From the NCBI GenBank assembly GCA_020632535.1, contig JACKFJ010000002.1:120245-184244 (forward strand): 64,000 bases of DNA, given 5' to 3'. The translations under genes were made by a program, and so were the position numbers. Below the pieces are notes generated by a model. It worked only from the letters and a program-made list of their open reading frames with translations, ran no database searches and was not told the DNA's origin. Position 1 is the stretch's first letter; each line of letters opens with the position of its first letter. This DNA is from Candidatus Omnitrophota bacterium. GTDB taxonomy: Bacteria > Omnitrophota > Gorgyraeia > Zapsychrales > JANLHA01. Shown one piece after another: positions 5,405 to 40,100 of the stretch.

Positions 5405-5570
5405 AATTTCCCCAATGATGTTTTGGATTATAACATTGTTAAAATGCCACTGCAACAAAGGTTAAAAGTATTTATTGATATAGGTAAAAACTTTTATCCA
5501 CCAAATTTAACTTTTATGTTATAAATATCCATAATTTAAAAACACCCTTATTTCTCTATATATAGCCCTG
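5405..5570. promoter_or_regulatory. Divergent intergenic region likely carrying promoters for mutS (+) and the coiled-coil operon (-)
   Basis: A 166-bp AT-rich spacer between divergent starts. Candidate sigma70-like hexamers on the plus strand: TTGATA at 5476-5481 and a TATAAAT-type -10 at ~5521-5527. Not verified. Confidence 0.3.
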
Positions 5571-8216: not shown

Positions 8217-8341
8217 AAGAAGTAAGAACAAGTCCGAAAGCGAATTGAACGCAGCCCCGATTCTGGCCTCCTTAGGCAAATGCCTAAGGAGACATCCACC
8301 GGGGATCGTTCATTGAGATTGAGGACTTGTTCTTACTTCTT
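8217..8341. repeat. Nested inverted-repeat element between mutS and mutL; a structured RNA, regulatory leader of mutL, or MITE-like insertion
   Basis: The outer arms are a perfect 19-bp inverted repeat: AAGAAGTAAGAACAAGTCC (8217-8235) and GGACTTGTTCTTACTTCTT (8323-8341), with an 87-nt spacer. Inside is CCCCG (8255-8259) paired with CGGGG (8300-8304). Inside that is a 10-bp stem CTCCTTAGGC/GCCTAAGGAG (8268-8277 / 8282-8291) with loop AAAT. It ends 14 nt before the mutL RBS. Confidence 0.6.
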
Positions 8342-8365
8342 AGCATAACTACTAAAAGGAAATTT

Positions 8366-16100: not shown

Positions 16101-19100
16101 GAAACAATTCACCATGTGCTCGCTTAAATTCAGAAACATGCTCCTGCGAAACATACCAAGAGGTCAAAATAATGTTTTCAAACTGCTCAGGAAAGAAATC
16201 GTACGGCCTAACCGTTACTCTCTCGCCAAGAGGTTTCATTTCATCATCATCATTACGCGCAGGTGGAATCTTTCGTGGATTCCAGAGAGCGATAGGGTCT
16301 AAATCATCGTAATCATATAAAACAACCCGACCAGTAGATGTAACACCATAATTTTTAGGAAAGAAATCACCTGCAAATAATCCAATACCAATAATTTCCT
16401 TAAGAGCTTGACCATAGTCATCAACTGTCCTGCGAAGTAATTCCGTGTCTATCGTTTCTTTTAAAAAAGTATCTAGCGGTGTAATCTTTAATTGAATAAA
16501 AAGATCTTTAATAATAATCGTCTCTCCATCGATAATTATAGAATCTGGAGCTCTTTGCTTTAATTCTTCAAGCACTTCTGGTGTAAAATCGGCCGTCGCA
16601 AATCGAACATTGGCATAAATCATCGCATCAAGAAGCCTTCCCGCACGATCCATTTCATGGACTAATTGATACTTTGTTTTAACCATTGCCTTCCCGCCTC
16701 GTATATCATAATCTTCTTTCTCAGAATGATCAGCGGCAACTTTTAGAACATATGGAAAATCATTGTTAAGAGTAAACGTGACCATCACCTTCCCCTTGGT
16801 TCCCTTTGCGAAGACAAATTTGCGCTCTGGATGAGTTAATTCCTCTGCCATAGATATTGTAATTTCAACCTTAGCCGGATAAACAAGCCCAATAGCGGCC
16901 AAGAGAAAAGCTCTATCCTTACCACCGGCGATCGTTTCAATAAACTGAATGATCTCTCGATAGTGCTGAATATCAACCATAAAATTCGCGCGTGTTGAAG
17001 CAAATAAAATACCACTGACATCATTATGGTTCATGAGTAAAGCATCAACGACAATACCAGTTTTGCCTTCTGGATGCGTTAGCGCAAAAACAAGTGGTAT
17101 CGTTTGTCCTTGAGAAATGATTCGACCCATCAGATAAGCTCTTTTGTTACGATAAAAAATTGGATTTAACATCTCAATCATATCGTATCGACGAATATTA
17201 TATTTAGCCATTTCTTGCTCAATGCGCTCTTGACTAAGTCGAATATCGCGATCTAAATCTTCAAACGGAACATTAAAATGAACCCTCATAAAGATTTGGC
17301 GAAGGACACTTTCTACCGAGATTTGATCATGATCACCCGAACTTAACAGGTACGATGTATATGGCTGATTTTGCAATGTGTATTGGATAGGAGTATCTTT
17401 ATGAAGACGTTCATCTTGATATTCGACGGGAATTCCCTTGTGAAGAAAAACACGACGAAAAGCCGAATCAAAGAATTGCATTCCAATATCATCGTCGTAA
17501 TCTTGCCGCAAGCGCTTTTCATAACGAATACGAAGATCTGCCCAAACTGCTGGGTCATCCATCTGTTTACCAAAAATCTTACCAATCTTCTGAACAACAA
17601 TCGTTACGGCTTGCGAACGAGATTTATTTCGATTTCTTTGTTCTCTCTGCATACGATTCCAATCACGAGTTTCAAAAGCCTTCTTGGCAACACGATGAGC
17701 ATTCTTGAAAGCACGAAATGAAGAACGAAATTCCTTATGAATGATACGGGCACTGCGATTCACCATTTCTTCATACATCCGTTCTTTAAAAACTGCCGAT
17801 GAGGAACTCAACACAGCTGTAATTAAGAATCCGCTCTTTCCTTCCAAAATTCTAATATCATCGAAAGCATACTCTCGTAACATATCATTAAAAGTCCAAC
17901 CCAAAAGATGAGCTCTTCCCGCATAAACAACCCCTGCCAATTTCGGCAAAACAATAATTATCCGACCAGAATTCTTTAAAATCCATGAAGCCTGCTTAAT
18001 AACTTGCGCTAAAATGTCAACATAGAAAATTATACCGTTATCGTCAGGCCCTGCTCCACGAGAGATTAAAGTCTTCCCAAAATCTGTCTGCATTGTGTTT
18101 TTATCAACAACTATATGATGCAATGACCTATTAAAAACAACTAAATCCATGGAGTGTTCCTCTAGCACTTTGCTTAAAGCGGTTGCATCGCCATACACAT
18201 GTGTTATTTTCTCTACGACTACTATCTGGTCACTTGCAAATAAATCCAACATTGTCATCCTATGCATGCCGCCAAGAAGTAAACCTTGTGCTGGAGCCGA
18301 ATTAGAAGCTGAACCCACATCAACCCCATTTCCTTGAAGCGAATAAAAAGCCGCTAATGTCTCAAACAACAATACGTCTTTATCATGATCCAAATAATCG
18401 ACAATTCTTTCCTCAATTGCTGACGAGGCCAAATTTCCTTTTCGTATTGCCTCGATACGTGCGTATAACTCAAATGCCGCCGCATTATCAGTAACTTCAT
18501 GAATCTTTACTTTGCCGTCGGGCATTATCACAACAATATACTCGTATGGCTCAACACTAATGCGGGGGAAAAGAAGATACGTAGTCTCTTTATTATCACG
18601 ATCCAGCCCCATACTTCTTCCCAGTTTCAAGAAAAAGAACCGTGGCAGAGAGGAGCCTTTAATCACAATCGTTAAAATATTTCTCTTAATCTGTGTTGTA
18701 AAGTTTTCAACGGCTTCCACAGCTTCATAATCAAAAATCTGAATCGGATTTGTTTCCTTAGGCTCAGCGAGATTGGTGTCGCGCAAATCGATATTACTTT
18801 CAAAACGCACTTTAATGCGCAATTCATTAGCCTTACGTCTGACAAAACGTTCAATCAATGTTGAACGCACTACAAAATCTTTAAGCCCGCCGGGTAAAAG
18901 CAATGGCGCGTTCTCAAGAATGACAATCTTCCCACCAATTTGTCGAGCAAATTTAATTAATAATGGGGCGTCATATGCTTGACGCAACTCTGCGGCTAAT
19001 CGCACAAAAAGGTCTTGGTTATTATCATTATAAAAAGCAATCCCCACGCCATCACCTTGGCGTGTCTCAACAATCTCGCCTGTTTTTTGATCAATAACCA

Positions 19101-22100
19101 AAAGATCAGTATTAATTCTGGGATCATCCAAAGTATTTTGCTCTTTCGAAGATCGATCAACACTGAGCGTCATTTGCTTTTCATTACCTGTCTGAGGATT
19201 AACAGTCGCGAGATATCCAAAATAATCATCATTAATAAATTCACGAACAATAATCGAAGGATAAAATCGACTGGCATCAAATTGATGCCGCTGAGCGCTA
19301 TGCGCCCAATCTTTAATTCTCACCATCAAGTCCACCCACTCATCGTCAAAGTGGCGTATCCATGCTTTTTGAACCATTTCAATAATATTATCGGCGGTAG
19401 CAATTTCCGGCAGCGTTCTTTCACCAAATAAGCGCTGATCCGCCATAGAAGATAATTTCACGATCGCTGTTTTATTACCTAAGGTTTCACGATAAGCCTG
19501 TTTGATCTTTGCTTTAAATTTATCAGACAGTGTAAGCCGTCGAACTTCATCCTGAACACGACTAAACTTATTAGGAAGCTTGTCATTAAGAATATCCCCG
19601 ATAGCTTGATCAAACTCAGCAAATCTTTCCCTCCTGAAAATATTTCTTAAGACAACAAAACCAGCAGGAATTGCAACATCATAACCTTGTTCACGAAGCC
19701 TGAGAGCAACTCGATGGATCATCGCTAACCCATAGGCATTTACACCCGCAATATGTGGATCTTTAATACTTAACTCATCGAGACGAACCACATCCGCGGA
19801 CGTATCCAAACTCCGTACAAGTTTTGAATAATATTCAATCAAAACACGATCATCATCTAATCGAAATCTGCGACTTGCCGAAATTATCGATTCAATAACA
19901 AATCCGATATTCTCCTCTTCAAATGTCGAAAGTTTTAATCGTTTACGGATGACTTCTAGTCGTTCAATAATTCTTTGTGTTGTTTGAAAACGTTTTTTAG
20001 ATTTAATGACTTCAGTAAATTGCAATTCTTTCAAATCAAGCGTCGTAAGATCATAAGCGAATCCCGTGAAGTATCTTCTCTCCGCAGGAGTCGCCCTTTC
20101 AATAATTCGACGTTGTGTTATTTGCAGCCAGACAATAAAGTCTTGATATGCTTTCTGTACCTCGTCCTTCTTTCGCGTCGCCCTAATAGCCCTAAGGGCA
20201 TTATGAAGACGAATAGTTGCTACCACTTCTAGACGCTTATGAACTGTCTGCTTGCGATGCGCAATAAGATCTTCGTCGCTCTCTTGATAAAAATGCCCTA
20301 ACTCCTCAATATAATCTTCCATAGACTTTTCATATTGCACAGCCATATGCTTAATCATGTCAAGCTCATGAGATAACCAATACCGGATAAAACGAATCTG
20401 CCACCATGAATCTTGCGCCTCTTCATCAAGTCTTTCGTAAGCTTCATCAAATCGCTCTGCGACAGCAGCATTAATATCAAAATTTTTCGGTGAATAAATA
20501 CCCTTTAAGCGAGTGTCGATAATTATCTCTTGTCCATCATTCAAAAGACCGTAACCTTCTTCCGTAACCGTCGCCCAAGCAAGTCCCAAAAACGCGCTGC
20601 GACTGACCGTATTACCAGTTTGCGTAATCAATCCGCGAATTCCTGTCTTAAACAAATTACGAAACTCATTGATCGAAAGCTCTTTAGCAACAACAACTTT
20701 ATCTTTGTATGCCGCCACATCACCATTACCATTTGTCCAAACCTTAATCGGACCATAAGCAAAACCATGCGATAAAGTTTCAACAGAAACAATAGCCGAC
20801 GAAGCAGACGTGCCGTTTTGTGTAATCTCATCGACAAGATGGGTGACAATCATATTGCTATCAGCCTTCTTAGAAAAATTCACAATACATTCATGAATCG
20901 CCGCTGCTTCTTGAGTCGTGAGTAAATTTTCTTCGCTAAAAAGATCCCAAATCTTACGAACTTCGTCCCATTTCCAATGACGTGACTGCGCTCTATTCCC
21001 GGTAGGTTGAAAAACAATCGCTTCCGCAATCGGTCGCGCGATAAAGTTGGACTTGCGTAATAAATCCCCTTCCATCCGTGTTTTAAAACCAAACATGAAT
21101 AAATACATCAAGCGGGATAAATCATCGCGACGCTTTAATAATTCATCAATCAATTTTTTATCCAAACTATTTTCCATACTCAAATCAACGATCGCCGCGT
21201 AAATAAGCTTACCAAACCATCCTTTGGACAATTGATCACGTAATTGCTGGCTAAGTTCCTTATTTTCGTCATGAAGTTGTTTTTGTGCTGCAACCATACG
21301 CTCTTGCATGACATGCAAATCAAACAATAGCGGCAACCCAACGACAAGAGCCTGTTCTTCGGTAAACCAATCTAAATAATCTTCTACTTTAGTAACAAGT
21401 GCTGCGATCAACTCTTGCTCGACTTTGATCGAAGCAAAATCACTCTTCTCTAAAGTAATACTTTCTAATTCGGCAATTTCTCTTTGCAAACCTGCCAAGA
21501 TTTCGGCCTGCAATTGATCAACACGCGCTTGAAGCATGACTTCTAAACGATCACCACGACTGTCTTGATTGCCATATTCCTCTAACTGAGCGAATTGGAC
21601 TTCCAACTGTTTAATCAATACATACAAAGCGTCCAAACTTGCAACAGCGGTTATTTGGCCGACGAGTTGATCAAATTCATTTTCTAAAGCGATGATGTGC
21701 GAACGATCTTGTACATTTGATAATTGTTCTAATAAAATCTTTCCTTGTGCTAAATCATCAGCGGTCAATCCTAATTGAGCGCGCTTCTTATCCGCCTTTT
21801 GTGCATCTTGAATTGACAAAATATCGTCTAAAAGCTCATGACCACGTTTAGCATCACTTTGTCCAGCCAACCACGCCTGAACACGACCACGATATTCTTC
21901 TTGAATCACCTTTCTTAAAGAAGCCTTTTTATAAATTCGCTCATCCTGCACTAACTTCACTAAAAATGCTGTTTCAACTTTTTCAAATCTTCCTGCTAAA
22001 GCCTCCGCAGCCGCAACAAACAAGTCATTATCCTGAGCGGCTAATAAAGATTCGAGTCTTTGCGTAATTTGAGCTGATTGACTATTAGCCACCATTAACT

Positions 22101-25100
22101 GAGTCAATATTTCAATTTCATTCTTAATTCCGCGTCGTGCTTGTTGCTGCTCTTCTAATTCCTTTTTACCTGCTTTTTTATTTGTACCATTCATAATGAC
22201 CTGTAAATCACTCCATCGCTGTTGCGCTTGATCAAGATCACTTTGAATTCCCATGAGAATATTTGCCGGAAGTTCTCGCTTAATAAAGAATGACATTTGT
22301 AGCGCGATTGATCGAAAAGCCGCGTGTTCTTTTTCCGTGATCAATGCCAATAGAGCATCCCATCTTTGATCTTCAGTCCCAGCAAGCATAAAAGCCACGG
22401 TCGCACGATCAAGTCGGTTAAGATCTTCATGATTTAATAAACGAACAAAACCTTGTTTTAATTGCCCGATTTGAGCCATTTTCTTTAACCAAATCACGCG
22501 AACATAATCTACCTTAGAATTCTTTTCTAACGTTTGTGCCAAAACAGCTTCCGCTTCGTCAAGTTTTTCTGTTTCCAACAACAATGAAAGCAAATTCTCA
22601 TAAAGCTCTTCCCACATTCCATTGAAAGTTGCGGCGGTTTGCAAGTATTGCATTCCCGCAGTATGCATATCTTCATCTTGTAAAGACCCTGCTTCGCTAA
22701 CCAAAATCAATCCGTATAAGCGGTGTGCTTGAGCGGCATCTTTCAAATTGTGTTTTAATACCGTTTCGGCGTATTGCTGACCTTGCTCAACTTGTCCTAA
22801 TTTCATCATGGCTCGCGCTTTATTTAAACCATATTTGAAATCTGAATTCCCACTCGTATTCTCTGCAAGTTCCAAATGTTTCAATGCTTCTGTATTTTGA
22901 TCAAGCGTTAAGTAACGAAGTCCCATTTGATAATAAGTATCGGCAATATATTTAGCATAACGTTGTTGTAGACCCGCAGACTCGATAAATGCCAGCCCCT
23001 TATTTACGACTTCAAAGAATAGATTTGTCGATTGAACGCCGGAAATCACAATGGCTAAATTGCTGTAAAGTTTAGCGATTAAATCATACGGCAAAAACTC
23101 ATTTCTAACTTTCTTCCCACGGCCTTGTTCAATAATCCAAAGAATGCCTTTTTCATATTGAGCTAAATGTTCCATAAAGCCATCAAAGCGGCCAAGTGTT
23201 GCTAAGAATTGGATTTGATTTCCGGTTAATACCGTAAATTCGATAGGCCATTGTTCATAGGATGTTTTCTTGAGTTGCTCTTCAATAACCCAAAGACCTA
23301 AATCCAAAGCTTCGACACCACCAACACCATTAAGTTCTTGAACAGTTTTCTCAAAAATTCCAAAATTAGAACTTTTTGTACCTAAAACGTCCATTGCGGC
23401 AACGCGTTTAGCACGCTCAAATAATTCAAGGGTTATTTTACTTTCGGCAATATTGATCGACTCAATACCTGATGAGGCAAGAATACTTTGTGATTTCTTT
23501 TGCCAAATATCCAAATAATAACCATACCGGCGAACATTCTCAGCCTCTAGTTTCTCATCCAAAAGTCTTAAGCTTGGGCTGTTAAGATTGTAGTAATCTT
23601 CTTGAAGATATTTTCCTAAATCAAAATATCCTCGATATTCACTATAAGGCGTCACGACAATCATTCCGTTGCGCTTTAACCATTCTCGTATCGAAGAAAG
23701 ATTAGTAACAAAATGCTCCATTAAATTCATCCCAGACTTTTGATACAAAACATCGAACCGACCGGCAAACTCCAAATCAAGACTTTGGTCATGACGAACT
23801 ATTGATTTATGAATAAAGATAATATTTCTTATCGTGGATTCTCCCGGCAAACGAAAAGCTAAATTAACTCTTCCCTGTTTTAACTGAGAAATCGCGATAT
23901 CTTCTAAACGCACGCCCATTTGCAACAATTCATGAATTAGGAAAATTTCAATGCCACCGTTCACAAAATAAGGAATAGCACCAAATCCGCTTTTTCTTTT
24001 GTCAGCAAAATATTCGCCCAGTCTTTGCTGCCGAACTTCACCTTCATCTAAATCATTAACCCGAGCACTCATTAAGGCGTCATATAGTTTTTCTCCCGAT
24101 ACAGGAACACGATCAACAACAACCATTGTTGAAAAATCTGTAACCAAAAGAGCCGTGATAATATCCGGGCCATTGCCTAATCCAACAACCCTAACAGGTC
24201 TTCTGTTTGGATTAACCAATTTGCGCACTTCTTGAAAATAAGCTGCTAAATTGGAAGATAAAAGTTGCCCTTGACCCAATAGAGCCGATGAGGCAGATTG
24301 CATGGCATCAAGTTTTCTTTGCCGAACTTGCGCAATGATTTCATACGCTTCTTCCTGCATATCGACAATGTGATAAAGATTTAGATCTTTAGCACTGATC
24401 ATTTTCTTTGCCAAAAGAACTGGGCGGAATAACTTTTCCTGCCACGGTAACCAAAAATCAGAACCCATGAGAATCAAAGGCATAACCTTATCCCCCTTGA
24501 GCTTCTGCGTCTGAATAAGCGTTATCGTTTGAAAGAAAACATCGAGAGCCGCATTGCCGCTTGGAAAGAAAACTATGCCTTGATCGCTAAAATTAATAAT
24601 GGCAGTCTTACGAATAAATTGATGCGTAACCTTAAGATAAATATCAGCTGATCCATTCTTAACACCGTTCTCATCACCAACATAAATGAGCTTTACATTA
24701 TTTTTCTTTGACGCGGCCCTAAATCCTTCTTCAACTGCTTTACCAATTCCCGTATGACTCATGTAAATAATCGAAACACCACGTGTTGCATAGTGTCGCG
24801 CCATTGCCTTAGCCTGTTGATAAGCATTTTGATACTCCGCGTTGAAATCAGCATCGTCGCCATGATAAGGAATATCCGTCCCCAGAATTGTTATTGCTGG
24901 ACCAATTCCACTCAATAATCCTTGCACAGAAAATAACTCACGAATAATATCATCAATCCTTAAAGCCTGCTTGAAGTGCGGATTCGCTTCAATTTGTTGA
25001 TCAATCAACCGAACGATACCATCAGCATCACGAATATCATTAAGCTGGATAAGGTCATCGACGCGATGCTTTAAATAACCTCTATTGTGCAAGTCACGCA

Positions 25101-28100
25101 TTAATTTCACAAAAGACGCGTAAAATGATTGATCAAAGATTAACGGTGTTTGAAGACTGATTACGCCTAAATCTTTAAGGACAAAAAACTCAAATGCTTC
25201 ATTAAGACTACCGAATCCACCCGGCATATAAATCGCGGCCTGACTTAACTCAGCAAAAGCTACCAAACGACTTAAGAAATATTTAAATTGAAGCAATGTT
25301 GAAATGTATGGATTTGCTTCTTTTTCATGCGCAAATTGTTCTAAAATAATTTTTAACCCAATTGAAATACCGTTTGCCTCCACAGCTCCTTTATTCGCAG
25401 ATAACATCGTCCCCGGTCCACCACCCGTGATAACAGCATATGAATGTTGTGCTAACAATGCGGCGATACGCTCAGCTGCCGGAGATTCAACACGCGCAGA
25501 ACCAAAAATATTGACACCACCCTTACCCGTAAAAACATAGTTCTCCAAATGTAAAAGCAGTTCTTTAACCGCCAAAGCAACAAAATCAGGACTCATACCG
25601 ATACGCGGCAAAGTAACTTGCTGTATGTCAGAACTTGCTCTTTTGATCGGTAATGTAAGAATTTTTGCGCTTTTGCCAGTAGAAACATCAGACAAAATCC
25701 GCAATTGAACATCAAAACGGTATTGATCATCGCGATTGGATAAAGAATTTACCTTCAAATGCGTCATATATCTTCGAAGCAAATCTTCGTTTCCAGCTAC
25801 GAATTTAGCATCAAATCCTAAAATCAAAATATATTGACTTGGCAATCCTTCACGAGCTTGTTCTTGAAACTCAATCATTTTTAATGCGTCACCATTTATT
25901 CCTATATGCACCGGATCGTGCTTATATTTCTCAATAGTCAACATGTTCCCTTCCCAGCCAAGAAAGAAACGATGCATCAAATCTCTTTCATACCTCACAA
26001 ACCAAAATGGGCGTTGTAATTCAGACGCTTCAATCGAGAATTCTTCATCTGTTGTTCTTGATGCAAATGTCGCAAAAACAAAACCTTTTCCTTGTTCAAT
26101 TTGCCAGCCTTCATATCTTTTTAAATTGATAATTTGCCGCATCAAAGGTGAATAATGATAGGCAACAGATTTGATATCATCGCCATGTAATAAAGCATTA
26201 CCCAACTCTTTATGTAACCAGCGATAAATCAAATATCCAATACTGCCGACGAAAAGCAATATCCCAATCGCCCAAAGACCCATTGTCGCGTTAATCAGCA
26301 GGGTTGTTCCAGCTATTGCATTCATCGAGAGAAGAAGAACACCCAAACCGATAAGCAGTTGCATAAAATATTTTGCTTTACTTAATCGTGGGAATCCAGA
26401 CATGTCAACACCGGCAGCCTCAAAAACTTGTGCAAAAACCCCAATAAACCGCGGCGTTCTCAAACCATCAGTTAAATTTTTTGATCCTCGATCTAGTACC
26501 AGCTTAAGTCCATTAATTTCATCAATATTCTGACCTCCTAGAATCATCAAAGATAAAACACTCTCCGGACTTAAAACTTGGAAATCTTTGAGAAACTTCC
26601 AGTCAATCAATTGAACATCGATGAGAAGCCCTTGCGATGAAAACCTCACAAGAATATTATGCAAATTAATATGACCGTGTAAAAACCAATCGCCATCCTG
26701 ATACCGCAAAACATGCTCAATCCGATGAAGAATCATATCTTTTTCGTTTTGTGTCAGCTTTTTCTTCTGATTCTCGACAATATCACCCAAAACTTGATAC
26801 CCATAAACACGCAAATCTAACTCATAATAATGAGTGGTATCATTAATTGCGAAGAATGTGGGAACAGCTCCGAAAAGATCTTGATCAATTAACTTTTGAA
26901 TTGTGGCGATTGTGGTGCGGGGTCCAATGAGTTTTTGAATAATGCGCCATTTTTGCTTAGGATGTTCAAAAACAGCCTGCTTCCGATCAAAAGATAAACT
27001 ATTCAAATCCATATTCTTATCGTGCCTTAATCCAGTAATACCTTTGACGGCTAAGTATTCACGAATCGCGGCCATTTGCTGATTCGTCCAAGGTGCTGTC
27101 ATAACCGGCGAGCTGACTTTTTGTCCTTCGACAATACTCAAAGACGTGCGATCTTTCTTGTGAACAAAAACTTTCGAAGGAACATTAAACAATTTTGCTA
27201 ACACACCCCGATACATAGCGGCGGGTCGATAAGCGCCATTTTCCCACTGTTCAATTATTCTGGCTAATGATTCACTTAAAATACGCTTTTGCTGCTCGCT
27301 TATTTGGTCGAACAGTGGACCTTGAATTATGTTAATCATCTGTCGTGCCATTTCATTCGGAGTCAAACCACGACCCATTCTTAACAATCGAATCTTATCT
27401 TTAATCGTGCCTTCCTTTATCAAGTGTTCTTTGGTCATGCCAGCTAAAAGCACATAAGCATCCACTCCGAGGGCAGCTGCTAAACGTGGCCAAATTGCAC
27501 CAGAATCATCAACAGGCTCACCTTTGCTCAATTTTAATATTCGCTTGAATGTTACTCCGGAAATTTCGGCCAACTGTAGAAGACTTAAGCCAGCAATATC
27601 GCGCAACTCTTGCAAACGAACTGGAAGCAATCGCTCTCTTTCTTGCAAACGTCGAATTACTGCTTGTTCTTTAATACTTTCAATAAATTCCCATTTTACT
27701 TGTTCTCGTTTTTTACCCTTACGCAAATACATTGGTTCGACACCCATCATTATGCTCCAGTCACGCAAAGACGATACATAACTTTCATCAATCGGCTGTG
27801 TGACAACCTTACTCCACTTAGCAAGTTGATTAACAAGAACTACGTCGGATCTACCCAGTGGCTGACCGATTTGATCCCATGTTAACGAACCATAAATGAT
27901 ATTATAAAGATCTTTCAAATATCGAATTCTTTGCGCGGCAGCAGCCATTGTTTCTATACCTTCGAGACCTGATAATCTGATAAGAACATGAACAATCTTT
28001 TTTTGTTTTTTAACTTCAAATTGTCCAATAAAATTTACAAGTGACTGCGGATGAATCATCTGAGTTCTTAATGGCATTGTTCCGCTGATTGCCCATTGAT

Positions 28101-31100
28101 ATTGTGTCGTCCAACGACCATCAACCTGAACAATTGCCGCGTGACTTATCAGTGGAAATCCTAACATTTCAAGCCATGCCAAAACTCGATTCACCTTTTG
28201 CGGTGAATTGATTGTGCCCTTTTCCTGCAGCCTTACCAAAATCTCTGTAGCAGTGATAGGTTTGTTTACAAAATATTCCATGCTTAATAGAAGTTTATAT
28301 ATTTTAAAGCCATCTTCTAAAATAAATTCTGAAAGAAATTCATCATCGACAATTGAGTTCCCTTCCATCACCGATTCATAACCAAATTTAACGAATTCCG
28401 CTAAATCAACATTTCCTGCTCTAGTCAAAGGAGTCAAATTTGGCAAATCGCGCAAATTGTGATCTCCGATACCATTCCAATTAAAAGTTTCAAACACTGA
28501 CGAAGAGGCTAAAGCAACGTGGAATATTTCGTCTTCGGTAGCTTCTAATAATTCTGCTAATCGTTGACGTCGTTTCATCGGAACATTTTGTGTTCCTCTG
28601 ATCCAATTTCCAAATTGTGTCGCAGTCACACCAAGATCGGTCGCCATAACATCTTTAATTCTCCCAATGTTTAATCGCAACAGGTCGATCCGCTCACCAT
28701 CCGTTGCTTGACGATCTAAAGCAGCTTTTCTGCTTAATCCGTCTGTGAGAAGACTTATAACAGCATCTTTCCCTTTGTGTCCGCGAGCTCTGGCAATTAA
28801 CGCTAACACTTTAGGATCTTTAATATTTCTAACATCGTCTTGTTTTGCATGAACAGTTGGAAATGGCTCAACAAATGCAACTTGATTAGAAATCGATGTT
28901 TCAGAAACTTTTTGTTTAGCAAGCCACTCAACAAGAATTCTTGCCTTTAATTCGTTATTCCCTCTTGCAAAAACATAAGCCATCGCATCGATATATTTTG
29001 CCGACGGGACCAGAAGATCTTCGCTCCATTTGATAACAATCTTTCTGGAAACTTTAAGCGCAGGATCTAATGCTATGTTGTTATAAGTTAAGCCTTCAAC
29101 CGTTCGATACAAATCTAAACGCTGACCGAATGTGCGCATAGCCAAAGCTTCTGTCCGCGATAATCCGGTCAACAGAACATAAACATCCTGCTCAAGAATT
29201 TTTGCAAGTTTTTGCCATAACATCGTGTCTTCGATAAAATAAATCTTGTCCGCGGTCTCTAATCGATAAATAATATCTTCATCCACATCCACCATCTTTG
29301 CCAAATCTTGACGAGTTAAATTACGGCTTCGTCGGAAGAACGCGAGACGCTGACCACGGCTCTCTTCTTGCTCTTGAACCGACACTATTTTAACTGGCAA
29401 CTTCGCGATCTCGTCACCAGCCCATAGCATAAATGACCCAACCCCTAAAAATGTTCCAATCTCTTTAATGGTACTTTCTTCGGGGAAGCTCACACCCCTT
29501 AACCATGTAGCAACACGCTGATTGATTGTTCTGCGAATTGCTGGACTCATAGCATCACCTTTATATAATTTCTTTACTCGCCATATAATCCTGATTCTCT
29601 GAGCAACAGCCTTGGCGACTTGCTGTAAAAACAATGAATTCGTACGCATCTTTTCCCAGTTATAAATAATCTCTTGATTGACAAAAATCCTCCTCCAGCT
29701 CTTCTGCATTTCTACTGGCCACGTTTCAAATCCATCAATATCCCATTGCGACTTCTCTAAACTTGGAACAAACCATTGCCCGTTCTCACTTACAAGAGTC
29801 AATCCAGCTATTTGCAACCATTCCAACCCTGCCTGAAGAGTGACTTTTGAATAAATAACGCTTGTGCGATATGGCAATTTAATCGCCTCATGTATTAACG
29901 CAATCATCCGCAATTTGATTTTGTCATTAAGCCAATTGGGCTGATAATCTTCAATCATTTTGTAAAACATAAGTAAAAAGTCATTGAGACTATTTGGTCG
30001 AATATATGTCATTTTCTTAATCTCGCTTAAAAGATGACGGAAAAGATCGTCCTGCTTTTGTTCGGCAAGAAAGATAAGAATTTTAGCTTCGGCTAATTTG
30101 ATCGATTGCCCACCGACCCCATTAGCGATCAAGCGAGGAATTTCAATCATAATCTGTTGCGATGTCCAGCGGCTCTTGCTAACAGCTAATTCACGATAAA
30201 CATAAAGTAATTCAGTAATAAACTTTAATAAGTACATTTCTTCATCAAACAACTGACCATTCAAAGTCGATTGATAAGCTCTCATCGTACTTCTATATTC
30301 TTTTCTCGCCTTCGCGTATAAATAATCCTTCAAAGCAATAGGGTCTCGAAGTTCTAATAAATCCTCAGCAATCTTTGTCAGCCGACCATTACCCTGTAGC
30401 ACAATTTCATCAATCGCTGAAGATGCGCTAACAACATCATCCGATGACTCCGCGCTAAGAACAAACCACTGTTCATTTTCTCTCACGAGAGCAAATCCAG
30501 TTCTTCCCAACCAACCTAAACCTACTTCAAGCATCCCTTTTGAAGAAATAACACTCGTACGATATGGCATTTTGATCGCTTCATGTATCAAGGCAATCAT
30601 CTGAGATTTGATTTTGCTATTGAGCCAATTTGGCTGATAGTCTTCAATCATTCCAAAAAACATAAGTAAAAAGTCATTAAGACTATTAGGCCGAGAATAT
30701 GTTATTTTTTTAATCTCGTTTAGAAGATGACGAAAAAGATCTCGCTGTTCTTGTTCCGCAAGAAAGATGAGGATTTTAGCTTCAGCTAATTGAATCGACT
30801 GCCCGCCGGTTCCGTTGATAATTAAGCGAGGAATCTCAATCATAATCTGTTGGGACGTCCAGCGACTCTTGTTCTCAGATAATTCACGATAAATATTAAG
30901 TAATTCCGTAACAAATTTTAATAAAAACGTCTCTTCGTCGATTGGTTGGCCATTTAAAGCAGACCGATAAGCTTTCTTTGCATTTTTATAAACTTTAGCG
31001 GCTTCTCTATTTAAATAATCCTTTAAAGCAACTAAATCCCTAACATCTTCTGGTTCCAACGCGTCAATGATAGCCTGTGGATATGGTTTACGCATTGGCG

Positions 31101-34100
31101 CGGCACTGATCACCCAATGTCTAATCTGTGCTTTGCTAACGTTTCCGATCGCAGCAAGCTCTTCAAATGTAAATCCTTTTTCTTTGCGCAAAAGATTAAA
31201 CCGTTCATTTTGTGAGCTTGCTTCTAATGCGACTACTCTCGGTTGATTCGTCAATAATGTAATGACATTGGTATCACGTCCCCGAGCAATAAACGCCAAA
31301 ACTTTTATATATTGTAATAAATTTAAGTCATAATTATGTTCGGCCAGTGATGGAAACGGCTCAATGCTGCTTAACTCCCCAGAAGGCAAAAGAACTTCTT
31401 GTTTACTAAATAGATCCTTGTCAGATGCGCCCAACTTTTTCTTTAAGCGTTGAATCATTTCCGGTGATGGGAGATTCTGATCCGAAATCCACATCCCAAC
31501 AATAGAAGGAGACACGTCAATGGCTTTGGCTAATTGACCTCTTGTTAATCCGCCAATTAACCGCAACAAATCAAGACGTTGGCCAAAAGTCCTCCGCACA
31601 AGAGCCTGCTCCAATGGCAATCCGGTAAGAATTTCACTAACCGAACGATGAAGAACTTTAGCTATTTTTCCCCACATCCATGGATTATCTAAAAAGTGCT
31701 GTGCTGATCTTTTTTCTAAACGATACAGCTGCATTTCGCCTAGTTCAGGAATAAGCGCTTCAACTTGTGGTCTTGTAAACCCAAGCAATTTACGATAATA
31801 TTCAACTCTCTGACCAATACTTGTTAAATTCTCATTCTCCTTCTCAATTGCCGAAGAACCAACTGAATGCTTTTGTGTGAAAGGAATAATTTTTCCGGAA
31901 TGATTATTCTTTTCCCATGCAAAGAATTCATCTTCACTCATAAATAATAATGCCAGCTTCTTTGTTGCTGTACGTTCAAAAACTCCTTTAATATTCTGCA
32001 TATAGGCATGCTGATCAGCTAATTTCAAATTACGATTAACAAAATCCGCAACTTCACTGCTCAATACAACAACCAATGTCATAAGATCAGCATTAAATTC
32101 TAAAGAAACAAGCGGATCTCTGCGATGATTGATGCGCATAATAAAATGAACTTTGTGCCCATATCTATGTCTCGGATATTCAACATATAAAGAAACTTCA
32201 CCTTCCGTATACCACTGCAACTCAATAATTCTCTTGACCGAATTAGTAAACTTACTAATACTCCAATCCCCAACATCAAAAGCCGTAACCCTAATACTAT
32301 TATTCGCGTATACTATTGTTCTTTGCCGAGCATTACGTGACTTACTTTCATTTTGCCATTTTTGCGATAAATTATGAAGCGCTAACCGCGCGTTGGATAT
32401 AGGTATCCCCGGAGTAAAATCTACGACTTCATCTACTTTCAAACTGCGAAGCTGCAAAACTGCGACATGACTGTTGATAGACATTTTATGTTGCATTTCA
32501 ATATAAACTTTTCGCAATAACCGCGCGTAATCAGAATAAAGAGCAATACCAAATCTTTCAAAAGCTACAAATAAATTCTCAATTTCCGCCAACTTATCTG
32601 TTAATCGTTTAGACGTGCGTAAACGATATGGCTGTGCTAAATTCTCAAACGCTTCCTCCGAAAGCACACCGGCGCCATAAGCAAAGAGAGCATATTCCAA
32701 AATATGTGTAAGAACTTTTAAATAAACAACCGCGGCTCTAACATTTTGGTCAAACAATGGCGCGCGCGATAATAACAATGTATTAATATACAATTGATCA
32801 TCTAATTCATCGTAAACAACAAGATTTCTTCCTAACTGCGCAAATTTAAAAAGTTTTAAGTCGCTAACAGAATTGCCTTGTTTAAGATGCAAAGCTCTCA
32901 TCGCTCGGGTGAGGAATTCCATCTGCCCTTGTTCATTGCTCTTCTGATATTTACGACCAAATGGCATTACCAATTCCCCGGGGAAAAGAACACGCGTATA
33001 AAGCGCGGATGAGGCGACTTGCGACACCTGTTTAAGAATTTTACGAACATCATTCTCTGAAATATCTGTAGAAAATTCCAACATTAACACAACTTTGACA
33101 AATTTCTTGTGCTGATTAATCGACACGACCTTAATTTCTTTAATATTAATCCGAGAATCAAGCTCCCACAGAGAACGTAAAAGCGCGTTCAAAGATCCAA
33201 CTCGATTTGATATCTTAACTTCAAAATCCATCAAAAGATTATTACTAGTGGATTCACCCACGCGAACATCGGGAATACGTCCGATTGCTTCTATCACCGT
33301 TGCTAAAACAGTATGATCCAGATCACCATCGAGAAAGAATCGCACTTTAAAACCGTCTTCGTAACTTGCTTCAAAAGCATGAATATCTAATTGATTGGCA
33401 GATAAAATAGACGTAATCGGCATCAAGATGCCCGGTCGGTCATAGGAACCACTTACCGTCAAAACCCATTCCTGAACATCTACAAACGGAGCTGTCGCAT
33501 TTGCTTGACGACGGGTCCATTGCCTAGAAAATTTACTCCGTAAACCTGAAACACTCAACTTTTCATGAATAACTTTCGCTTCAACAAGGCCTCTCCCAAC
33601 AGCTTCAAAGAAAAGTTTTAAATTTCTGTTATATTTAAACGGCAACTCCGGAAAGATTCCTAAAATGGATTCGAGGCGTAAATCTTTGCTTCGATCTCCA
33701 ACCCAACTAATAACTTTTTGTTCAACCAAAAGCATGCGTCCAGCAAACTCCAATATTTCACCTAAATCCTCAAGATTGATAAGGCCCAAAGCAAAAGCCA
33801 GATAAAGTTCTTCTAAAGTCTCATCTGTTTTAAGCATCAAGGTATCGCTCCACTCCTTGAGAACTCTAATTTTTTGTCCATTACGGAATCGATCAGCAGC
33901 TAGCTCTAAAGCAGCTTTACCGCTATCGCTTTGTCTTTTTCTTTTTTCATTATCCCAAAACACAATACGAGCCATGAGCTTCGCTCGAAGCGTTGTCGAA
34001 TTATGCATAATCTTTGACCAATTGATTACACCGAACTTGCGTGGGAAGTAAAGCGTATTTCCTGTTTTTAAAAATTTATTATCCCCAAAACGTTGCAAAG

Positions 34101-37100
34101 CCCCGGAAGCATGAACGCGACCTTCCTCAACAGACAATTCAACAAAATACGCACCGCTATATTCACCATTTAATCGATCAATACGCCAATATGCAGCCGC
34201 ATCCGCGGGAATCGCGCCATAATCAAGAATAAGAGGATAAATAAATTTTTCATTTTCACTAATCACGTTGCTTAAGCCAAATCCATAACGCGGCGAGTAT
34301 GAATGTACGGTTGGGTTGTAAATAAGTACCACAATTTTGCCATCAAAATACTGTCTCAAATGGACAAAATCATGCGCCAGATCATCAGTCGGAATAGAGT
34401 GCGGAAATTTATCAAATCTCTGATTTTTTAACGCGGGATCTTTATGTGCCGAAAATTCAAAATGCGCAATCCCCTGACCCATAATATAAATTTCATAGCT
34501 AAAACTGTTCATAACAATAATATCAAATGGCCGATTTTCATCATCACGCATGGGGAATTGCCAACCTTCATATCCAAACCGTCTTTGAAAATCAAGATCA
34601 TGATAGTACAAGCCCGGGGCGCTGCGCACTTGCTTGCGGCCAACATTATTCTTCGTCAAATTAGATAGTAAACTATTGATCTGTTCTAACACTTGCTCAT
34701 CTTCAACAACAATCATGATCCCAAATAAATCTTTAATTTCAGATAAAGTTAAATGACGGCGAGTTAATTTATTGGCTAAAGACGCATGAGTTTTTAAGCG
34801 GTTATGATAACTGACGCTCTCCTGAGAAACACCATTGTCTTTTAAATACTTGCGCATCTTACGCATAATATGCTCGATATATCTTTCCTGTTGCTTTTGC
34901 GTAAATCCATGTGTTAACTCACGAATAGCCGCGACAGTACGATGATATTCTTCGGGAGCAACTACTGCAAAAGCCGTATCTTGCAAAATACGCGCAATAC
35001 TGGGAATTCTAAAATAATTCGCTAAAGTTACATAAATATGAGTAGCTTTTCTGGCGTAATATTGCCTTTCTGTAATCGTCATAGCCACAGAACTTTCAAG
35101 TGTCGCCAACATTTCAGCGAAGCCAAATAATAATCCTTGCGAATCATTAATATTCATTACAAACCATGTCATCCATGTTGCCAAAGCCCGGCTATGCAAT
35201 AAGTTGCCATCCTTATCCATTCTCGGGAAATATATAAGTTTACGAATTTTATCAAAATGTTGGGCTTGCTCTGATAGATGATGTAACGAATAAGGGAATT
35301 TGATCACACTGTGAATATCAAATAACCACGCTGCGGCAAGAGTTTCTTCACGCACGGCAGTTGCTTTACTCGCACCCCATTCGTTTAATAAATCGACAAC
35401 CCTTTGCGTATATACAAACTTGCTCGCGGCAAGGTGCTGGCGCGCGAATTCTTTTGCTTCTTCGACAATAACGGAACTCGACGATTGATTTCGACGATCA
35501 ACTTCCTTATTAAGAATATTCTGTAAAGCAGTTAAATAATCTGCCCAATCTCTAGGATTTATCGTTCGTGAAAATTCTGGATATTCTTCATTATCACTTG
35601 CAACTTCATAAAGTGCGGCCGACATTCTAAAATCCGAAGAAACCCAATCTTGTCTTGTTGTAAATTCCGCCCAACGATTAAGAACAGGTTGATCCAAGTT
35701 TTGGAAAAATCCTGCCCAAAATAACTTAACCATATCAAACTGGCTTGGAAGTTTGATTTGCGGTGCATAATAACTCAACTTTTTGTTCGCTTGATTTATT
35801 GCTAAAAGCGCTAACTTAATCTGGGTTATTAGGCTTGAATTATTTGTTCTAAATCCACCTAATTCATTTTCAGCTTCCCGCGTTTCTTCCCGATCAGATA
35901 TCAATCCGCTGACCGTCAAATCCTGACCATGAAATGTCTCAAGATATAAGGCGTGATTATGCATAAGCGCGATTTGACGCGCCACCTGCGCCCCGAAGTA
36001 TAAAAATAATTCCTGCGTAGTACGAATAACAGGCTCGCCAATTGACTGCAGCGCGCGCGACAAATAATGAATCAATACTTCTAAATACGGATCGTTTTCT
36101 GCAATTTGTAAAATCTTGGATAAACGATACGGCGTGTGAGTTAAATTAAAAACTAATACAGGAGGATTATCACTATCCCATCCTTGCTCGCGAATCGAAT
36201 CAAAGCGACCATTAGCATGATTTGGCAAAGTTTTTAAATCCCGATAACCAAGATTACGCATAAACGCCCGACGTTCTTTTTGGGTAAGCATATTCCAAGA
36301 ACGCCCAGATAAACGTTCATTTCTTAAAACTAAACCTTCATAATCACGTCCCCCCAAGCTCTTTTTATATGACAAATCTTCCTCATATTCATTTTGACCA
36401 GAACCCTTGACGCCAACCCAGAATAATTTATTACCAATTAAATGCAAATAATATGCCTGACGACCATTAGCCACAAATCGATACATATTATTAATAAATT
36501 CTTGACGAGCCCGATAATCAACAAACATCACCTGAACAGGAATTCCAGCCTTCAATTTCTTTGCCGCCATCGCAACAGTTGCAATCTTAAAGGAAGTTAT
36601 ATTGTCTATAAATTGCGTTCCACCTATCAACTCTAATGCTTCACGATCAACACCAACAAGCGGACCAACCTGCTCATTTTTTTCTGTCAAAATTTGATGA
36701 AATACTGGCCGTAAGGAACGATCCCAATACAAAAGCATCTTTAATTCTTTATTAAACAATTTTTCTAAAACAATGTACTCTTTTACACCTATATAAGCTG
36801 CTAGATATGAATTAGCTTTATTTAACAAATTATTCCGGAAATGAATTTGCGGGGTAATATGATCCGTAACTTCATCTGGCACGAGTAAAGCAATAAGATT
36901 TTGCGCGAGATCTTCAAGGGCGATAAGGTAAGAATTAAAATTGGATTGTTTATTTGTTGCGAGGAGGATCCAAGGCTGACCATCAACTTCGGTCAAAACT
37001 GCAAAACCGCTTGTCAACGGACCCGCACGCAAATGTCCTGCGGCAATTGTTTCCTGTAACAATTGCAATCTTTGTCTTTGACCAATTCTCGTCAAAAATT

Positions 37101-40100
37101 CATAAACTTCTTTCATGGCAACACTATCCTCATATCTCATGACCCACGGCGAAGCATCCAATTTACCACCATGAATCAATTGCTTGGCTTCATTCACAAC
37201 GGCCGCGATAGCAAAACCTGCACGCGGCAAGGCATGTTCTTTAATCGGGCTAGAACTTTGATTCTGACTCATATCATCATCCTGACCCATTTGTTTTTGT
37301 ACCGCTTCAATTGTGTTATTTAACTGCCACTTTGTCTCAACTTGTTGCGGCGAAACTAATGAATAAAAACCACTCCCATTCCATCGTTTTTGCTTATATG
37401 TGCTTTGTAAAATATGATTCAATACCGGTCGCGCGTCGCGACCATTAGAACCCATAAGTCCAATCACCTTAACAAGCCGTTCTTGCGCCTGATAGGAATG
37501 TTCATTCTGTAATTCAGCAATAATAAGAGATAAAGCAATCGAGCCGTTGAGAGCAAGAGCACGGCTTAACCAAGCGCGTTCAATTTCGGAAGATTCCGCA
37601 CGAAGGAAGAATGCTAACACTGCTTTTTGTACATCCTCATTACCTGATGCTAAAACTTTAGAAACATTGCGCAAGAGATCTTCTTGCCACAAAATATCTT
37701 GTGTTTCTTTTAATGTGTTAACTGAATAATTAGTATCTTGAATCTCGCTCCTAATTGAATCTATTTCCTTCATGAATTGAATTTGTTCTCTGACTTCAAT
37801 AATTCTGCTGTAATGTTGTAAAGTTTTTAGCAAAAATTCTGTCTGGTTCTGTAGCGCAACACTCTCTAGAGATTTAGCCCCTAATATACTCGCGATAATT
37901 GCAAAAAGTTCTTGTCCCGGATGCAAGTAAGATTCACTAACACTTGTAGACGCGACAGTGTCAATACTCAGATTCTTATTTGCGGCAAAAATGCCAGTAG
38001 CGTTTGGTTTTATTTCTGGCGCAGGTTGTGGATGAGGCTGTTGATCAAACTGTGGCTTAGGCTGCTTTGGTTGTGGAACAGGTTGATTCTCCAGCTTTTC
38101 GAGTTCATTTTCAAAATGCTTAATCCAGAGAGGAAGATCTTTCTTAATTTGAGGATATTTCACGGCAAGTCCTACACTATTTAAAATAGTACCCAAAACA
38201 CGCAATGTTTCAATAACTATAATCTGGAGCCTTTGATTTTGTTCCTGAGTTTCAAATTGAAGCTGCGCGCTAAAATAATCATAAAAGAACTGCTCAAGCG
38301 CGAAAACTATGTCTGCCATCAAATGCGCGTCACTTCTCACGGCTTCACTATGAATGAAAATAACGCCACGCGGCTGACCAAGAAATCCATCTGAAACATA
38401 CAATGAATGATTCAACACCGAAGGATGCTCAAGCGGCAAATTAAATAATAGTCGCAAGTTATTGCGTATAGCAACTTGAAATCTTGAACTCAACACAATC
38501 TCACGTTCAACAGGGTTAAGATTTACAACGATAATTTGAAATAATTTGACAAGTCTTCTTGGATCAACAACAACTGTTTTATTTTCATCGATCGTGGAAT
38601 CTTTCGCGGCAAAACCAATAATAGCACCAAGAAAATCTCGTCGCGTAATCGCGCTGGAAGCGACAGGATATTGTGCAATAGCAGAATTCGCGTCAATTGT
38701 AATTTTGCTGACTTCAACCTGACCCGAGACAAATACCTGATAACGCAAAGGCTCTGTCTTTGTTGCATCGCGCCAAAAGACAAGAACCCGATCTCCGTCG
38801 ACTTGAATATTAATTTTATTGGACAAAGTAACAGCACTAGGTTCATCCCAACGATGATTTCTTAAAACCGCAGCCGGCCTAATAAGGCGCACCGTACTAT
38901 CCACTTTATTAATTTCAAATTCGGCGGACCACAATCCATCTTCTTCCCAAATACGAATATCAAACGCTCCATGCCGCAACCAATCAAATTGTGTAAACAA
39001 ACCACTTTGCTGGTCATTCTTGTATCTGGAATCGATGCTATATACTGCATTTGGAGCAATATATTTATAAACCATCCGCATCAAACCATAATTTCTTGTA
39101 TTGTGTATTTCAACCATCGAAAATGAATTTTGCCGTGCAAAATTAACTAAATATGCAAATATCGTACGACCCATGCCCTGTAAATTATAACTATAAGAAG
39201 TCGCACTAAAAGCAATATAAAGTACGTCAATTTGATCTTCTACAAGACTCAACACCAGATTGCTGTCTGTAATCACGTTCCCATTAAGCCAGAGGCCAAA
39301 ACTTACTTCCTGTGAATCATCCTTTTTATAAACAGCATCCAGATTCTGTTTAAGAGTAAATGGCTGGCCATTAACAATGTTAACCAATTTAATTTTTTGC
39401 GGTAGAATGTCTTCGTGCCAATTTCGCTGAATCGGAGATGAAGCACGAGTCTTACCTTGTTTGTCTTCAACCACCTTAATCATGATACGTTCAAAATTTG
39501 AACGAATTAATCCACGAGCCGCAATTTTATTAGCATTAATATCACCCTCGTAAGAAATATACGAAACACCGACTCTCTCAGCTAACCCCTTGAGTAACCA
39601 TTGCGCTACGACCAACCGACCCGTCGACTTCCAAGTTTCACCCCCCAATAGACGCTCAACCCGGCCTAAAATCATTTCATGAGATGGAAAAGCCGTAGCA
39701 TAATTTACTGCCTGCCCCCAGATTGAAATTCCACTGCCAAAAAGCATATAAAAATTTGTATTAGTTTCTCCCTCATGATTAAACCAGACGTCAAAGGTGC
39801 GAACGCCATAAACTCCAAATTCATTTAATTTTTCGCTTAAAAATTGACCCTCAGAAGTCTGTTCAAGATTAAGTTCAACTGAACTCATTAAAGGATTCTT
39901 TGTAATTACAAAAATATCGATATCTTCGCCATAAGGCATTTGCGTCTCAGCTGGATAACTTGACCAAAATTCAACTAAACTGCCACCAATCGTGATATTT
40001 TGAATTTCAATATCTTGGAAATGCCGCTGCAAAATAATTGGTAAATATTCTTGTAAAATGATAAGAACGTGTAGCAAATGATTTCTTTTAATCTCATGAA

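Follow-up and report, generated by a model that had tools for sequence, protein, structure and literature searches.

A stretch of 64,000 nucleotides (nt) of contig JACKFJ010000002.1 (positions 120,245 to 184,244; hereafter the window) carries an open reading frame (ORF) of 53.8 kb on its minus strand (10156..63954), which starts with ATG, is complete within the window, and encodes a predicted protein of 17,932 amino acids (aa). We investigated an internal repeat in this giant gene, formed by two copies (U1 and U2) of a domain some 200 aa long, an orphan here named U. In our assessment it is highly probable that the repeat arose by an old in-frame duplication of U, and that the host is a genuine giant gene of the multi-enzyme type of Omnitrophota. 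The duplication is an ordinary event, as reported for Omnitrophota giant genes, and presents no assembly problem. Its value is that of a pointer: it spans one of about 28 joints, each marked by a short peptide motif, in a protein that otherwise resembles a string of complete, unrelated enzymes. The stretches between these motif sites are referred to as modules and are numbered from the N-terminus.

The repeat had been noticed in the original prediction as two adjacent 231-aa copies at 29656-31041. This interval corresponds to aa 10972-11433 of the giant protein, exactly 2 x 231 aa, and all four peptides quoted as shared (MIEDYQPNWLN and MIALIHEAIK among them) were found twice, 231 aa apart (11030/11261, 11088/11319, 11102/11333, and 11119/11350). 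A nucleotide repeat search returned a 300-nt direct repeat with a spacing of 693 and 79% identity, and BLASTP of the giant protein against itself, run on overlapping pieces, aligned the copies with 72% identity over 202 aa (E = 1e-92). Tandem Repeats Finder made no call for the duplication, the 693-nt period being above its 500-nt limit. The repeat is real and far beyond chance. In an ungapped alignment at the 231-aa (693-nt) offset, about 200 residues per period were homologous, with no insertion or deletion over 200 codons; nucleotide identity in sliding windows was 0.73-0.88 in this core and at the background level of 0.27-0.35 in the remaining 31 codons. The period of 231 aa thus stood as predicted, but homology was limited to about 200 residues of it. 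U1, which lies at the C-terminal end of module 17, occupies nt 30442-31041 (-; aa 10972-11171), and U2, which lies at the N-terminal end of module 18, occupies nt 29749-30348 (-; aa 11203-11402). Between them lies a non-homologous spacer of 31 aa (nt 30349-30441, -; aa 11172-11202), and the 31 aa after U2 (29656-29748, -; aa 11403-11433), which had been counted within the second copy, are not homologous to that spacer. For the 31-residue remainders, similarity was detected neither between the two nor with the 31 residues upstream of U1. The feature is an in-frame, head-to-tail internal duplication within one gene, with two copies in the same frame at an offset of exactly 693 nt, and in this respect the prediction was correct.

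The copies had further been described as recent and as an assembly hazard. We found that U1 and U2 were 75.3% identical in DNA over 612 nt, with 151 differences, and 73% identical in protein. The differences were distributed over codon positions 1, 2, and 3 as 34, 36, and 81. By the Nei-Gojobori method, the proportion of synonymous differences (pS) was 0.60-0.61, the synonymous rate (dS) about 1.2, the nonsynonymous rate (dN) 0.16-0.18, and dN/dS about 0.15. Different codons were used in U1 and U2 for 51 of the 138 identical residues with degenerate codons (37%), and the strictly identical peptides carried 3-6 synonymous codon differences each. Four-fold degenerate sites were identical at 11 of 25 positions, against 0.29 expected at random. 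These values indicated an old duplication whose synonymous sites are near saturation, and the term recent had to be given up. The third-position excess and the dN/dS of 0.15 showed that both copies are functional and have long been kept by purifying selection. For comparison, the mutS gene in the window had a pS of 0.79 and a dN of 0.13 against its closest public relative, a metagenome-assembled genome (MAG) with 83% aa identity. Since the pS of U (0.61) is below that of mutS, the duplication is somewhat younger than the split from the nearest public MAG, yet far from recent.

The alternative of a recent tandem duplication, or of an artefact of assembly with a falsely duplicated or collapsible repeat, would account for the exact 693-nt period, the adjacency of the copies, and their long identical peptides. 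It left the 151 differences, their concentration at third positions, the dS, and the different codons behind identical peptides without explanation. The longest exact DNA run common to U1 and U2 was 22 nt, which is shorter than usual assembly k-mers and far below read length. With this run and 25% divergence, short reads would be unable to collapse the repeat by k-mer or read overlap, and mis-assembly would be unable to create it. Moreover, assembly errors yield identical copies rather than a third-position excess of differences, so an assembly error was ruled out. We give the recent or artefactual origin almost no credence, and the concern about an assembly hazard was unfounded.

U lies beside arrays of XRE-type helix-turn-helix (HTH) domains. 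Iterated hidden Markov model (HMM) searches placed the elements in the order HTH (aa 10712, 10788, and 10914), U1, the motif ASSAI (11177), U2, HTH (11532, 11607, and 11750), and the motif ASSSV (11816). The triple array upstream of U1 (31072..31821, -) was detected by iterated HMM and by Pfam HTH_3, and the triple array downstream of U2 (28549..29361, -) is its paralog, an older duplicate with 35% aa identity and a pS of 0.75. Module 17, which starts at the motif GSSAI (aa 10699; 31846..31860, -), therefore has the order HTH-HTH-HTH-U1, and module 18, which ends at ASSSV (28495..28509, -), has the order U2-spacer-HTH-HTH-HTH; the two form a permuted pair split by ASSAI (aa 11177-11181; 30412..30426, -). 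In Pfam, module 17 matched HTH_3 with 47.1 bits (cut-off 23) and HTH_31 with 35.4 bits (cut-off 27), and module 18 matched HTH_31 with 32.9 bits; these matches fell on the HTH arrays and not on U. Because the HTH arrays are far more diverged than the U copies, two or more duplications that differ in age have to be assumed. Alternatively, the duplication of U could be as old as that of the arrays, its copies being kept alike since then by intermittent gene conversion. The diverged state of the paralogous arrays is in line with this, as is the nucleotide identity of U, which peaks in the middle of the unit (80-88%) and drops toward the edges. However, no conversion tract was visible, the longest identical run being the 22 nt noted above, and synonymous differences were present across every conserved peptide. 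The central peak also coincided with residues conserved in the two distant relatives of U described below, which argues for constraint on the protein. We regard gene conversion as very improbable.

Relatives of U were rare. A word-indexed search of 5.8 billion proteins returned no match with the U pair as query, and only the protein P0001 (locus L081) with a profile of four U sequences. U-related loci were absent from two metagenome-contig scans and one genome-contig scan. The second relative, P0002, is the C-terminal part, at least 4,134 aa, of a giant ORF on a JGI contig (locus L082). This ORF is convergent with mutL, as in the window, and its MutL is 49% identical to that of the window. A further HMMER match, P0003, was rejected as spurious, being a Cys-rich repeat protein. 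Each of the two relatives has a single U, which in P0002 covers residues 449-669 and is directly followed by a motif site. In P0001 the order is motif, U, spacer, HTH, and the best alignment was to window aa 11173-11538 in module 18. U1 and U2 share 73% of their residues, whereas either is only 24-27% identical to the other known U domains; the conserved positions include W-[TS]-x3-[IL]-x2-E-[IL]-P-R-L-x2-N-G-x-G. By this comparison the duplication is specific to the lineage of the window. We infer that unequal recombination or slippage gave rise to the extra copy. This is probably U1, because U2 retains on both sides the motif-U-spacer-HTH context that it has in common with L081.

A different origin would involve no local tandem duplication at all: paralogous HTH3-U and U-HTH3 modules (HTH3, triple HTH array) could have been juxtaposed by the module shuffling or recombination from which the remainder of the gene was assembled, the 231-aa period being incidental. 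Such an origin would fit the location of U1 and U2 in different motif-delimited modules of circularly permuted order, and the absence of residual homology in the 31-aa remainder. U also occurs in other contexts, with a motif and a PPDK-like module directly after it in P0002 and a motif before it in L081, and the modules that adjoin homologous ones in the window are not those found beside them in P0002. Nevertheless, the high identity between U1 and U2 compared with any other known U and the indel-free alignment over 200 codons argue against it, and the direct adjacency of the copies is most simply explained by local duplication. In addition, the rarity of U in public data makes a second donor difficult to come by. 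We consider the shuffling origin unlikely, and retain local duplication as the preferred explanation.

Regarding function, U may be a partner domain of the XRE-type HTH arrays, serving in oligomerisation, ligand binding, or nucleic-acid binding. The mirror arrangement HTH3-U1/U2-HTH3' might then act as a pseudo-dimeric regulatory unit, either in an intact chain or as two products if the motif were processed. We put this functional proposal forward only tentatively. Several findings weigh against the duplication as we read it, or against its functional part. The borders of the duplication were not recoverable, as neither rotation of the 31-aa remainder had residual homology. A simple duplication of linker plus U, or of U plus linker, predicts a second motif-bearing linker, and none was present after U2; since it is missing, one must assume that it was lost later or that the copies originated differently, by recombination of modules. 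Genome and metagenome contig scans provided no orthologous giant gene from a close relative and hence no direct dating, and translation of the giant ORF as one polypeptide is predicted from the open frame. As to function, neither U1 nor U2 had a Pfam match at E <= 10, the best match of U in the PDB had an E-value of 0.08 and was unrelated, and exhaustive HMMER searches over 1.84 billion representatives gave two true U matches, both weak. Two AlphaFold runs returned an all-helical model with a possible C-terminal beta-hairpin at a predicted local distance difference test score of 46-49, and U is thus described, with low confidence, as an all-helical orphan domain of about 200 aa.

The spacer between U1 and U2 contains the motif site (SASSAID), and the equivalent stretch after U2 contains none; the duplication therefore sits exactly across a module joint. 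We examined this motif along the giant protein. The pentapeptide A-S-S-A-[I/L/V], with S or G tolerated at position 1 and S, P, or G at position 4, occurred at 28 sites, compared to 1.55 +/- 1.2 in composition-preserving shuffles, an 18-fold enrichment; its core is S-S-[A/S/P]-[I/L/V]. The sites span window positions 10960-52677 (for example 51337-51351, 38647-38661, 30412-30426, 18415-18429, and 15997-16011). All of them come after aa 3743, with 0 in the N-terminal 3,742 aa of the giant protein and 1 in 3,174 aa of neighbouring proteins, and some are doubled, 7-19 aa apart. They cut the protein into 27 modules, most of 170-1,400 aa, and no Pfam match in the giant protein spanned a site. Module 24, a complete isocitrate dehydrogenase kinase/phosphatase (AceK; aa 15384-15981; 16012..17805, -), is bracketed by SSSAV and ASSSI, the AceK sequence beginning 18 residues after one site and ending 5 residues before the next. 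The paralogous modules 10 and 12 both begin and end on motif sites. Module 22 (aa 14384-15175; 18430..20805, -) is homologous to a PPDK_N-annotated module of P0002 (27% identity between aa 14394-15161 of the window protein and residues 741-1417 of P0002), and motif sites stand at corresponding places around the shared module in both proteins (14384 and 15176 in the window, 721 and 1427 in P0002); the neighbouring modules differ.

The serine codons of the motif were a mixture of TCN and AGY. Codon use at the motif was biased in the window, where the first Ala was encoded by GCY at 20 of 21 sites, compared to 24 of 60 other Ala-Ser dipeptides (p = 6e-6), the first Ser by TCN at 26 of 28, and the last Ala by GCR at 15 of 17, with a mild excess of rare codons (p = 0.002). 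This bias was not reproduced in L082, and the motif as a nucleotide-level signal was rejected. Since the serine codons mix TCN and AGY and the codon bias is absent in L082, the constraint on the motif appears to act at the peptide level. Internal translation starts behind the motif were likewise dismissed, as a Shine-Dalgarno sequence with ATG lay downstream of 0 of the 28 sites, with 1.2 expected.

The motif was also present in other giant ORFs of Omnitrophota, at 2.6-4.1 per 1000 aa. Its density in giant ORFs overall was 1.8 to 4.1 per 1000 aa, and the background, taken from 687 ordinary open segments of 82 loci, was 0.17. The giant ORF of P0002 in L082 (98-12502, +) carried it as [AV]SSS[VI] at 4.1 per 1000 aa, and a second giant ORF of the same locus (15007-22500, -; 3,792 aa in the record) had 3.2 per 1000 aa. 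In two minus-strand ORFs that run off the end of their loci, the motif took the forms [GS]SSPV (L004, 3.7 per 1000 aa) and [TS]SSPL (L006, 2.6 per 1000 aa), and it was absent from the large ORFs of L003, L005, L011, and L018. The consensus was uniform within a genome and shifted between lineages. We regard the S-S-x-[ILV] motif as a real, apparently undescribed marker of joints, at which the chain could be processed or modified, or which could be a favoured linker.

One specific possibility is that x-S-S-[A/S/P]-[I/L/V] is a recognition site at which some Omnitrophota giant proteins are processed into modules, by proteolysis or another site-specific reaction. Giant genes would then encode cellular polyproteins, and the duplication of U with its intervening site would create two separately released regulators, HTH3-U1 and U2-HTH3'. 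The enrichment of the motif, the sites at the ends of the complete AceK and of full-length paralogous modules, the positions kept around a homologous module in the distant relative P0002, and the lineage-shifting, genome-uniform consensus speak for such a role. Against it, the search for a protease was negative (with Pfam, no peptidase family was detected in any of the 27 modules at E <= 0.05), the core consists of only a few residues, and Ser/Ala/Pro-rich linkers or sites of O-modification could look alike. A protease acting in trans, or one of an undetected fold, is possible as the cutter. On balance we think that processing is a doubtful, though conceivable, role for the motif. Literature searches on polyproteins or a junction motif in Omnitrophota found nothing, and information on the cleavage points of giant proteins was stated to be lacking (West-Roberts et al. 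2023, bioRxiv 10.1101/2023.11.21.568195). Should the motif prove to be a site of processing or recognition, these points would be supplied, and the question whether bacterial giant proteins work as a single chain or as many products would become directly testable. Product boundaries could then be predicted for proteomics, the chain could be divided on a rational basis into units for structure prediction, and duplication of modules together with a joint motif would be one way of making new units.

The open frame of 53.8 kb with full-length Pfam domains indicated that the host gene is real. Along it, Pfam matches included starch synthase GT5 and GT1, a Pol-beta nucleotidyltransferase, RelA_SpoT with ACT, several XRE HTH domains, two LOG/Lysine_decarbox domains, TPR, the full-length AceK, and an alpha/beta hydrolase, for a total of eight to ten distinct families above Pfam's cut-off; the GNAT and methyltransferase matches were weak and below it. 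The 27 modules were compared all-against-all by phmmer, and paralogy was confined to modules 10 and 12 (full length, 47% aa identity), modules 17 and 18, and part of modules 18 and 19, roughly 10% of the residues. Module 24 (598 aa) matched AceK_regulatory 1-300/302 at residues 19-325 and AceK_kinase 2-256/256 at residues 329-593. It had 116 database relatives, mostly full-length AceK proteins of about 550-620 aa that were 26-35% identical over 93-100% of the query, together with about seven shorter partial sequences (329-476 aa). None of the 116 had domains beyond AceK, and none was embedded in a giant protein. Because paralogy covers only about 10% of the protein, and because the AceK module is complete and has relatives as stand-alone proteins, the gene has increased in length chiefly by taking in whole, unrelated genes or modules in frame, with duplication as a minor route. 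The earlier suggestion that the gene grows by internal duplication is thus only weakly supported, the three paralogous module pairs accounting for a small share of the protein.

The second internal duplication, modules 10 (aa 7632-7891; 40282..41061, -) and 12 (aa 8171-8431; 38662..39444, -), covers about 260 aa with a pS of 0.60 and a dN of 0.48. Module 10 has a weak GNAT-like match and a motif at its start and end, and each copy is motif-bounded, with different modules coming after the two. The N-terminal fifth of the protein (aa 1-3742; window 52729-63954, -) had 0 junction motifs and almost no Pfam matches. A Gly/Thr-rich stretch, beta-rich in appearance, occupies aa ~330-480. A Kyte-Doolittle scan of the giant protein found about 29 hydrophobic 19-mers, clustered mainly at aa 1789-3776 and 16966-17117. 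As judged from sequence, the N-terminal 3,742 aa with the main hydrophobic cluster may form a membrane anchor that holds the motif-delimited modules.

The giant ORF is flanked by mutS (5571-8129, +) and mutL (8327-10153, +), the latter convergent with it and ending 3 nt from its stop (10156). MutS was 83% identical to that of the Omnitrophota MAG SJ432 (JADLGJ01), the MutL search gave the same result, and among the 12 best MutS matches were 10 Omnitrophota/Omnitrophica MAGs and two sequences labelled 'uncultured Planctomycetales'. Placement by these flanking genes points to Omnitrophota as the source of the window. The arrangement of mutS, mutL, and a convergent large ORF of over 2,000 aa that runs off the locus end was found again in several Omnitrophota MAGs (L003, L004, L006, and L082). 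The large ORFs at this position had little or no sequence similarity to one another. In L082, only the C-terminal part of MutS (~260-300 aa, domain V) was present, at 14385-15284 (-), where it overlaps the end of the second giant ORF; this may reflect truncation or pseudogenisation of mutS, a frameshift, or capture of the gene by the giant ORF. Next to mutS in the window, an 872-aa protein (2840-5458, -) combines a signal peptide and a TPR-like N-terminus with an extended coiled-coil region rich in Lys and Glu. An adenosylcobalamin (AdoCbl; cobalamin) riboswitch was detected at 1259-1398 (-; Rfam RF01482, 51.5 bits, gathering score 50). Downstream of it, a gene resembling those of TonB-dependent receptors, signal peptide included (1-1164, -), runs off the left end of the window, the usual arrangement for B12 uptake.

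Compared with known systems, the joints resemble viral polyproteins with picornavirus or coronavirus 3C-like sites, in that a short motif stands at the borders of unrelated protein-sized units, is uniform in any one genome but varies from lineage to lineage (ASSA[ILV] here, [AV]SSS[VI] in L082), and includes closely spaced double sites. Unlike those, the present case lies in a cellular host genome with no cis protease by Pfam, its cleavage would be a prediction from sequence, and the motif might just as well serve for modification or be a favoured linker. XRE proteins commonly pair an HTH with a dimerisation or sensor domain, and the HTH_3/HTH_31 domains directly beside U on either side are reminiscent of XRE-family (Cro/C1-type) regulators, whereas here the HTH domains form triple arrays inside a giant polypeptide and U matches no known partner domain. 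With intragenic domain duplication and circular permutation through duplication, the U repeat shares the head-to-tail, in-frame, whole-domain copy, divergence under purifying selection, and the permuted orders HTH3-U and U-HTH3. It differs in that the duplicated U straddles a module joint, and in that a single duplication-permutation event would be insufficient to explain 73% aa identity in U and 35% in the HTH arrays.

Giant ORFs in Omnitrophota have been reported earlier (Seymour et al., PMC10066038; West-Roberts et al. 2023), and a class of giant proteins termed 'multi-enzyme metabolic cluster' has been defined among them (Nielsen & Lui 2026, bioRxiv 10.64898/2026.06.07.730766). The public catalogue of that study holds 5,761 Omnitrophota proteins of at least 10,000 aa. 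This gene and U were absent from the collections searched, and the S-S-x-[ILV] junction motif is unmentioned in Nielsen & Lui and in West-Roberts et al. In other respects the host gene matches the multi-enzyme class. It is a single ORF of more than 10,000 aa in an Omnitrophota genome, with many unrelated Pfam families tiled along it, of which starch synthase, GT1, and the HD/RelA type are confident. It has no obvious signal peptide, its repeats are diverged at the DNA level, no single repeat dominates, and its sequence is essentially unique in databases. The hydrophobic clusters of the Kyte-Doolittle scan are candidate transmembrane segments. The repeats of Omnitrophota giant genes were described by Nielsen & Lui as ancient rather than recent and as diverged at the DNA level, and the duplication of U agrees with that study both on the class of gene and on the ancient age of the repeats.

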